Virus record (IMG/VR): IMGVR_UViG_2537561618_000005
Source: a virus
Taxonomy: Duplodnaviria > Heunggongvirae > Uroviricota > Caudoviricetes
Reading direction: 5' to 3' (one strand)
DNA: 13,194 nt
Below the pieces are notes generated by a model that ran no database searches, was not told where the DNA came from, and saw only the letters and a list, made by a program, of their open reading frames with translations. The position numbers and the translations under genes were made by a program. Numbering within the stretch: the first letter of the stretch is position 1; every line of letters begins with the position of its first letter. This document shows positions 12,000 through 12,882 of this stretch, in pieces.

Positions 12000-12882
12000 T
12001 GCCACTGCTGGATAAGCTGCGTGAGCAGTACGGGGGCGGACCGCTATGCAGCGAACTGCATATTGCCCCGTCAACGTATTACCACTGTCAGCAACAGCGA
12101 CATCATCCGGATAAACGCAGTGCCCGTGCGCAGCGCGATGACTGGCTGAAGAAAGAGATACAGCGCGTATACGATGAAAATCACAAGGTATACGGTGTAA
12201 AGTCTGGCGTCAGTTGTTACGGGAAGGTATCAGAGTGGCCAGATGCACTGTGGCACGTCTCATGGCGGTTATGGGACTTGCCGGTGTTCTCCGGGGTAAA
12301 AAGGTCCGTACGACCATCAGCCGGAAAGCCGTTGCCGCAGGCGACCGCGTAAACCGTCAGTTCGTGGCAGAACGACCTGACCAGCTGTGGGTGGCTGATT
12401 TTACTTACGTCAGCACATGGCGGGGCTTCGTCTATGTGGCGTTCATCATTGATGTGTTTGCCGGATACATCGTGGGGTGGCGGGTCTCATCGTCCATGGA
12501 AACGACATTCGTGCTGGATGCACTGGAGCAGGCGTTATGGGCCCGTCGACCGTCCGGCACGGTCCATCACAGTGATAAAGGTTCTCAGTATGTATCGCTG
12601 GCCTACACACAGCGGCTTAAGGAAGCCGGATTACTGGCATCAACAGGAAGTACAGGCGACTCGTATGACAACGCGATGGCGGAGAGCATCAATGGTCTTT
12701 ACAAAGCGGAGGTAATACACCGTAAGAGCTGGAAAAACTGTGCAGAAGTGGAACTGGCCACACTAACGTGGGTGGACTGGTATAACAATCGACGATTGCT
12801 GGAAAGGCTGGGCCACATCCCTCCGGCAGAAGCAGAAAAAGCTTATTATGCTTCCATCGGAAACGATGATCTGTCAGCCTGA
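11996..12882 (+). pseudogene. IS629-like OrfB transposase (DDE) with an internal frameshift near 12197-12202
   Basis: Frame 2 (11996-12352) encodes [68 protein letters not shown] and then nonsense. The OrfB sequence resumes in frame 1 from about 12199 ([24 protein letters not shown]...DFTYV...[10 protein letters not shown]...[15 protein letters not shown]...). The frame change is consistent with a 1- or 4-nt deletion. Confidence 0.75.

Follow-up and report, generated by a model that had tools for sequence, protein, structure and literature searches.

An IS629-type insertion sequence with a 4-nt deletion in orfB, common to sampled Shigella and EIEC copies, beside a P22-like prophage remnant

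The window considered here, a stretch of 13,194 nucleotides from the Caudoviricetes record IMGVR_UViG_2537561618_000005, carries towards its right end an IS629-like insertion sequence in which the second reading frame, orfB, changes register part of the way along. The question is whether the break is an accident of this copy, a defect of the element more widely, or a point at which the frame might be restored during decoding, and how the copy came to lie where it does. A preliminary description of the sequence had placed the switch from frame 2 to frame 1 at about 12197-12202, regarded it as separate from the programmed orfA/orfB frameshift, counted 1306 bp between the inverted repeats against 1310 bp for IS629, and proposed a 4-nt deletion that inactivates the transposase. 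The parts of the element are as follows.

11619..12924, + strand: IS629-type IS3-family insertion sequence, 1306-bp 'DEL4' form, by similarity to 1306-bp and 1310-bp copies
11619..11643, + strand: left terminal inverted repeat, TGAACCGCCCCGGGAATCCTGGAGA
11673..11999, + strand, frame 3: orfA, intact, 108 aa, with HTH_Tnp_1 (PF01527, E=6e-13)
11954..12070, + strand: ALIL pseudoknot, Rfam RF01497 (scoring 116 bits where the gathering threshold is 50, and matching all 117 model positions)
11991..11999, + strand: programmed -1 frameshift region, from the sequence, with the A6 run at 11991-11996, the orfA stop TGA at 11997-11999 and the orfB ATG at 11996
11996..12352, + strand, frame 2, 118 aa: 5' part of orfB, 68 authentic residues followed by 50 out-of-frame residues and a TAA stop
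12178..12882, + strand, frame 1, first start TTG at 12214: 3' part of orfB with the rve/DDE core, 'IS629 ORF2' in pCP301
12195..12198, + strand: deletion junction, 4 nt missing; MAFFT puts the gap between 12196 and 12197
12199..12202, + strand: A_AAG tetramer in the orfB frame, made by the deletion, from the sequence
12900..12924, + strand: right terminal inverted repeat

By every sequence criterion the element is IS629, of the IS3 family: a member by descent, to be regarded as a pseudogenised copy. We take IS3411 and IS1203/IS1203v to be the same element as IS629, or isoforms of it. Evidence for the assignment includes the inverted repeats, which are 25 nt long and 92% complementary (TGAACC...GGTTCA), end in the 5'-TG...CA-3' of the family, and span 11619-12924, the 1306 bp that had been counted beforehand. 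The two reading frames overlap at a slippery A-run, with orfB in the -1 phase relative to orfA. Pfam recognises an HTH in OrfA and an rve (DDE) core in OrfB; the frame-1 part of orfB contains PF00665, PF13683 and PF13333 and scores 249 bits with the NCBIfam model transpos_IS3, and no Pfam domain was detected in the 118-aa frame-2 product. The site homologous to 11991-11999 is annotated as a programmed frameshift in the intact copy of E. coli CE10, and the ALIL pseudoknot that overlaps it has been described as the stimulator of programmed frameshifting in IS3411-type elements (PMC5009743). Identity between the window element and the CE10 copy, which stands proxy for the ISfinder reference entry, is 99.0% when the 4 gap columns are included; the CE10 copy is 1310 bp long, which bears out the length given for IS629 in the preliminary description. 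The best matches in E. coli are either 1306 bp long (99.2-99.3% identity, with 99.3% for the copies in E. coli O121 and EIEC pINV) or 1310 bp long (99.0%). The junction region is 96.8% identical, with a sole gap of 4 nt, to copies annotated as 'IS3-like element IS629 family transposase', and copies in S. flexneri LR213452.1 and UGYU01000001.1 match the whole element at 100%.

The CE10 copy (locus L002:1501-2810), for which PGAP annotates only the programmed frameshift, was used as the intact reference. Its orfB is continuous, and the alignment contains exactly one indel, 4 nt missing from the window after 12196, just as had been predicted. The intact GGT GTG CGT AAA GTC appears in the window as GGT GTA AAG TC; the missing nucleotides may be GTGC, TGCG or GCGT, the placement being ambiguous over 2 nt because of GT microhomology. 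It is this loss that moves orfB from frame 2 to frame 1, and the ORF frames and the alignment agree in putting the switch at about 12197-12202. The break lies some 200 nt downstream of the A-run at 11991-11996 and is, as had been proposed, distinct from the programmed site. In frame 2, orfB reads ...NHKVYGV, then 50 aberrant residues to the end at 12352; in frame 1, the sequence beyond the break is 97% identical to residues 64-296 of intact OrfB. The frame is broken at V68/R69, within the HTH_21 domain (intact residues 47-104), and the rve/DDE core (residues 127-223) is wholly out of frame for any OrfAB fusion, which meets the stop at 12352 before reaching it. With its ends, orfA, the programmed-frameshift region with the ALIL pseudoknot and the sequence of orfB, the window element shares the plan of the 1310-bp IS629; it differs in being 4 nt shorter, in lacking a target duplication and in having orfB split into ORFs of 118 and 222 aa, and because of this split normal decoding yields no OrfAB that contains the DDE core. 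We infer that transposase function has been lost in the 1306-bp form, as its reading frames suggest, and copies identical in form are labelled 'IS3 family transposase, frameshifted' by PGAP. The tract itself seems to be prone to indels: on the chromosome of E. coli FCI5 (L046:1201-1323), an independent 1-nt deletion (GGTG-GCGT) has occurred in the same short GT-rich tract of orfB, GTGTGCGT, in a copy that is otherwise of the 1310 type and is also annotated as 'frameshifted'.

The part of the preliminary description that did not survive is the implicit attribution of the deletion to an event in this copy; the deletion itself stands in the alignment, and inactivation is supported by what the reading frames predict. 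The lesion is common to the sampled full-length copies of S. flexneri, pCP301 and EIEC. All 22 of the full-length copies first sampled, which come from pCP301, S. flexneri chromosomal loci, the E. coli O121 chromosome and EIEC pINV, carry the identical deletion; they represent 17 unique sequences, several of which are the same locus in different strains, and the deletion is the sole difference from CE10 that all 22 have in common. Every full-length copy on the entire plasmid pCP301 (nine of nine) is of the deleted form, and its annotation of 2002 names the pieces 'IS629 ORF1' and 'IS629 ORF2'. Two 1306-bp copies with the identical deletion, labelled 'frameshifted' in RefSeq, are found in E. 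coli, one within a Rac-like prophage on the O121 chromosome and the second carried by the EIEC CFSAN029787 invasion plasmid. These pCP301, EIEC pINV and O121 copies have the same 1306-bp form and junction as the window element, and the 222-aa 'IS629 ORF2' of pCP301 corresponds to window 12214-12882; they differ from it by a few substitutions and in their flanks, R250C and A295S being found in the sub-lineage of the window. The exact 222-aa frame-1 ORF of the window has no database record, and a 206-aa version of it is present in S. flexneri LR213452.1 and UGYU01000001.1.

Wider searches gave the same picture. A 120-nt junction query was matched perfectly in only 14 E. coli records, which belong to strains with 245-297-kb plasmids or to relatives of such strains; the perfect matches listed for plasmid records were all to invasion plasmids of Shigella flexneri, sonnei, boydii and dysenteriae, apart from one EIEC plasmid. 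A 36-nt deletion-specific query, unable to seed on undeleted copies, matched 119 plasmids, 109 of them from Shigella and 10 from Escherichia, at 633 places in all, and nine of 5,426 complete E. coli genomes at 55 places. A gapped pattern that takes either form was run over GTDB species representatives, and all the matched stretches in S. flexneri SFBU1023 (11 of 11) and in 'E. coli' ECMA0423 (nine of nine), two genomes that have several IS629 flanks in common, were of the deleted form. Undeleted matches to this pattern came from one Enterobacter genome and three probable contaminant contigs only. The latter are short contigs (L026, L034 and L040) assigned to a Clostridia MAG, a Clostridiaceae MAG and a Desulfovibrio sp.; their IS629 copies show 96-99% identity and most likely represent Enterobacteriaceae contamination or mis-binning. 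For Shigella chromosomes, the coverage consists of two GTDB representatives together with the loci that were fetched. Over 100 independent assemblies contain this junction. On these sequence comparisons, the deletion is to be seen as an ordinary inherited, lineage-wide defect of the Shigella/EIEC IS629, neither new nor private to one copy.

The 1306-bp form is already known, in the sense that it is annotated in pCP301 and flagged 'frameshifted' by PGAP/RefSeq; our literature searches found no description of the 4-nt deletion, or of one lesion common to the whole Shigella/EIEC population. The existence of such a population-wide lesion is a modest descriptive point and does not make a new kind of element. 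It provides a clean marker that divides the IS629 of Shigella/EIEC from that of other E. coli, whose copies are 1310 bp long, and in IS-typing or IS-mapping of Shigella it should not be assumed that these copies encode a transposase.

How a family with this defect became so numerous can be approached through the target duplications. Perfect 3-bp duplications flank deleted copies at ten distinct loci (GCA, GGG, TTC, AAG, ACG, ATC, AGT, CTA, TTG and GCG), the chance of such a duplication being about 1/64 per copy, and from these ten copies it would follow that the family spread while defective. A further lesion, an identical 14-bp deletion in the DDE region (IS positions 866-879), is shared by two deleted copies, one between flhE and argS in strain 301 (L004:9624-10915) and the other in SFBU1023 (L029:1497-2788). 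Each has its own duplication (GGG and TTG, respectively), and the two differ at 14 other substitution sites; the sharing of one deletion by two duplication-flanked loci implies that defective copies spread or convert. There are signs of decay as well. Extra indels occur in six of the 17 unique deleted copies. Amongst the deleted copies, the substitution types in orfB are 19 nonsynonymous to five synonymous, as against five to seven in orfA, a contrast that is only suggestive (Fisher p = 0.058).

The duplications are not strict proof that the deletion preceded insertion, because the variable sites are mosaic among the copies, for example in the blocks 11899-12052 and 12765-12819, in patterns that show gene conversion. 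It could be argued from this that the copies inserted while intact and that the deletion was spread among them afterwards by conversion, in which case the duplications would say nothing about the mobility of the defective element. The 14 differences between the copies with the 14-bp deletion, and the exchanges of flanks that attest to frequent recombination between copies, can be counted on the same side. Such a course would nevertheless require all of the more than 40 sampled copies to have been converted in one direction, on plasmid and chromosome alike, with no intact S. flexneri copy left. Fewer events are needed if the deletion arose once, in an ancestor, and then spread, and we think conversion after intact insertion unlikely as the whole account, while noting that the two processes are not exclusive. 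On the sequences compared, the deleted family has probably been mobilised in trans, homogenised by gene conversion, or both.

Exchange between copies is also apparent on the invasion plasmids. The IS629 copies of pCP301 at 42886/66061 and at 32042, and that of locus L003, have left and right flanks in differing combinations; the left flank of the 32k copy together with the right flank of the 42k copy gives the arrangement of the EIEC copy, and identical left flanks follow ipaH2.5 and ipaH4.5. These combinations on pINV indicate repeated IS629-IS629 recombination together with segmental duplication.

Mobilisation in trans would need a source of transposase. No intact 1310-bp helper was found in the sampled S. 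flexneri material. On pCP301 there is no intact full-length copy, the sole undeleted junction belonging to a 744-bp truncated relative of 95% identity, and the S. flexneri representative chromosome gave deleted-form matches only. An undeleted-junction query matches 75 Shigella plasmid records, which may contain either full-length intact copies or the truncated relative just mentioned. In EIEC records the total junction matches exceed the deleted-form matches (for example, five against two on the O121 chromosome), and non-deleted relatives must therefore coexist with the deleted form there. The preference of IS3-family transposases for action in cis makes efficient mobilisation in trans less easy to accept. 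There is a precedent in an excision assay, in which IS629/IS1203v derivatives without transposase responded to OrfAB supplied in trans from a plasmid (experiments summarised by Chandler et al., bioRxiv 10.1101/2023.06.07.543989). Like those constructs, the window element has intact repeats and no predicted transposase of its own, and its family has insertion duplications; unlike them, it is of full length rather than an internally deleted miniature, and mobilisation in trans, proposed here, was there approached through measured excision. The spread of the family despite a common frameshift would make it a small natural example of non-autonomous IS propagation combined with gene conversion.

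An alternative is that no helper is needed. The deletion creates GUA_AAG, in phase with orfB, exactly at the junction. With the -1 frame open from 12178, a -1 slip of tRNA-Lys on A_AAG (12199-12202) would restore the frame with the loss of Arg69 only, and the deleted element would still be autonomous. Of the -1 tetramers, A_AAG is the one most prone to shifting in E. coli, and IS3 and IS1222 make use of it (PMC5009743, PMC4066793); in one reported case, a newly created (G_UU)A_AAG compensated a -1 mutation nearby (PMC5009743). The window copy resembles that last case, from the review of Atkins et al. 2016, in having A_AAG at the right place and in the right phase, and differs from it in that no stimulatory structure was detected, which leaves compensation here a formal possibility as far as the sequence goes. 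Were it real, it would explain the at least ten duplication-flanked insertions of a uniformly 'frameshifted' family where no intact copy has been found. Against this, such tetramers in the absence of a downstream pseudoknot gave 0.147% frameshifting compared with a background of 0.112%, A_AA.G reaching 5.6% only with the IS3 pseudoknot (PMC4066793). No significant structure was found 3' of the A_AAG in the window (z = -0.2 over 62 nt and -1.85 over 102 nt), and the predicted stem begins without a spacer. The residue that would be lost lies in the HTH_21 domain; the doubly defective form with the 14-bp deletion is likewise present at two duplication-flanked loci; and the substitutions in orfB (19 to five) look unconstrained. 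Autonomy by this route is very unlikely, in our view. We give the same slender chance to the related idea that the 1306-bp form is an attenuated, doubly recoded IS, making a little near-native transposase through two successive -1 frameshifts.

The possibility that the 4-nt gap arose in sequencing or assembly, or by a recent mutation private to this copy, has nothing specific in its favour beyond the indel-prone tract GTGTGCGT and the independent 1-nt deletion of FCI5, and is ruled out, to within a negligible residue of doubt, by the occurrence of the identical junction at 633 places in 119 plasmid records and on many chromosomes from independent projects, on such long-established plasmids as pCP301, the M90T plasmid NC_002698.1 and those of Sd197, Ss046 and Sb227, and in the base-for-base identical copies of two other S. 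flexneri assemblies.

We consider it highly probable, then, that 11619-12924 is a non-autonomous, decaying IS629 of the Shigella/EIEC type, with an ancestral deletion, which spread in trans or by conversion and had one flank exchanged later. The deletion, its distribution, the target duplications and the exchange of flanks are direct results of the comparison, and loss of transposase activity, movement in trans and the order of events are the interpretation put on them. In this scheme, the ancestral loss of 4 nt in the GTGTGCGT tract breaks orfB inside the HTH_21 domain, leaving an OrfA-OrfB fusion predicted to end at 12352, short of the DDE catalytic core. The inverted repeats at either end, orfA and the programmed-frameshift signals are undamaged. 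Elements bearing the deletion would then have multiplied in Shigella/EIEC, most simply by means of transposase supplied in trans; gene conversion between copies would have homogenised them, and further damage would have built up subsequently. The window copy would have entered the end of an IS600, next to the P22-like homologue of gene 16 in a prophage remnant; a recombination with another IS629, probably later, swapped its right flank and joined the prophage to an integrase fragment. It may now serve only as a stretch of homology.

The last of these steps concerns the sequences on either side of the element.

11535..11618, + strand: left end of IS600, 84 bp, including the first 20 nt of IS600 orfA, the target of the IS629 insertion (98-100% matches beside IS600 ORF1 copies of pCP301)
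12925..13182, - strand: N-terminal fragment of a tyrosine integrase (Arm-DNA-bind_3; PF13356, E=8e-17), cut by the right end of IS629

To the left lies the late region of a P22-like prophage (window 3293-11547), which runs from a coat gene to the gene-16/SLT ejection protein and is similar to Sf101 and APC_JM3.2. Related E. coli prophages match the gene-16 homologue only as far as 11534, and its last codons and stop (it ends at 11547) are supplied by the IS600 end; the nested insertion of IS629 in IS600 therefore truncates the gene for the ejection protein. To the right, 12925-13194 corresponds to the first ~85 codons of an integrase gene that is found intact, adjoining sbcB, in E. coli YY76-1. 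No 3-bp target duplication surrounds the window copy, which is flanked by acg on the left and gtt on the right. In S. flexneri CP026871.1 (L012), the same left junction is present with ACG on both sides, and IS600 sequence resumes on the right; most other S. flexneri genomes have psiF on the right, unlike the window. The IS sequence of the window recurs base for base, between other flanks, in LR213452.1 and UGYU01000001.1 (L020 and L021). The combination of an ancestral left flank in IS600 with a foreign right flank in the integrase gene points, on the sequence, to IS629-IS629 recombination, and the copy would lack a duplication because homologous exchange between IS629 copies replaced the right flank. 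The junction of late phage genes to an integrase N-terminus on the opposite strand implies an IS629-mediated inversion or deletion. IS629-mediated inversions have been reported around SHI-O in S. flexneri 8401 (PMC1550401), and the exchange of flanks in the window agrees with them. The same integrase flank is found in ECMA0423 (L041:3409-4073), where it abuts a 665-bp 3' fragment of IS629.

At the level of the locus the stakes are small, the element being one more inactivated IS in an IS-riddled Shigella prophage remnant. An IS2 copy at 358-2027 has its TnpB split between two ORFs in the same frame, of which 772-1356 covers profile positions 1-194 and 1411-1677 covers positions 214-301; the split indicates a premature stop at 1354-1356, and IS2 is thus a second inactivated IS in the window. 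A fragment of an IS66-family transposase occupies the left edge (1-357). Another IS3-family IS lies at 2045-3292, with a 279-aa OrfB that is the size of 'IS911 ORF2' of pCP301, and is directly followed by the P22-type coat gene, cut short at 3293.
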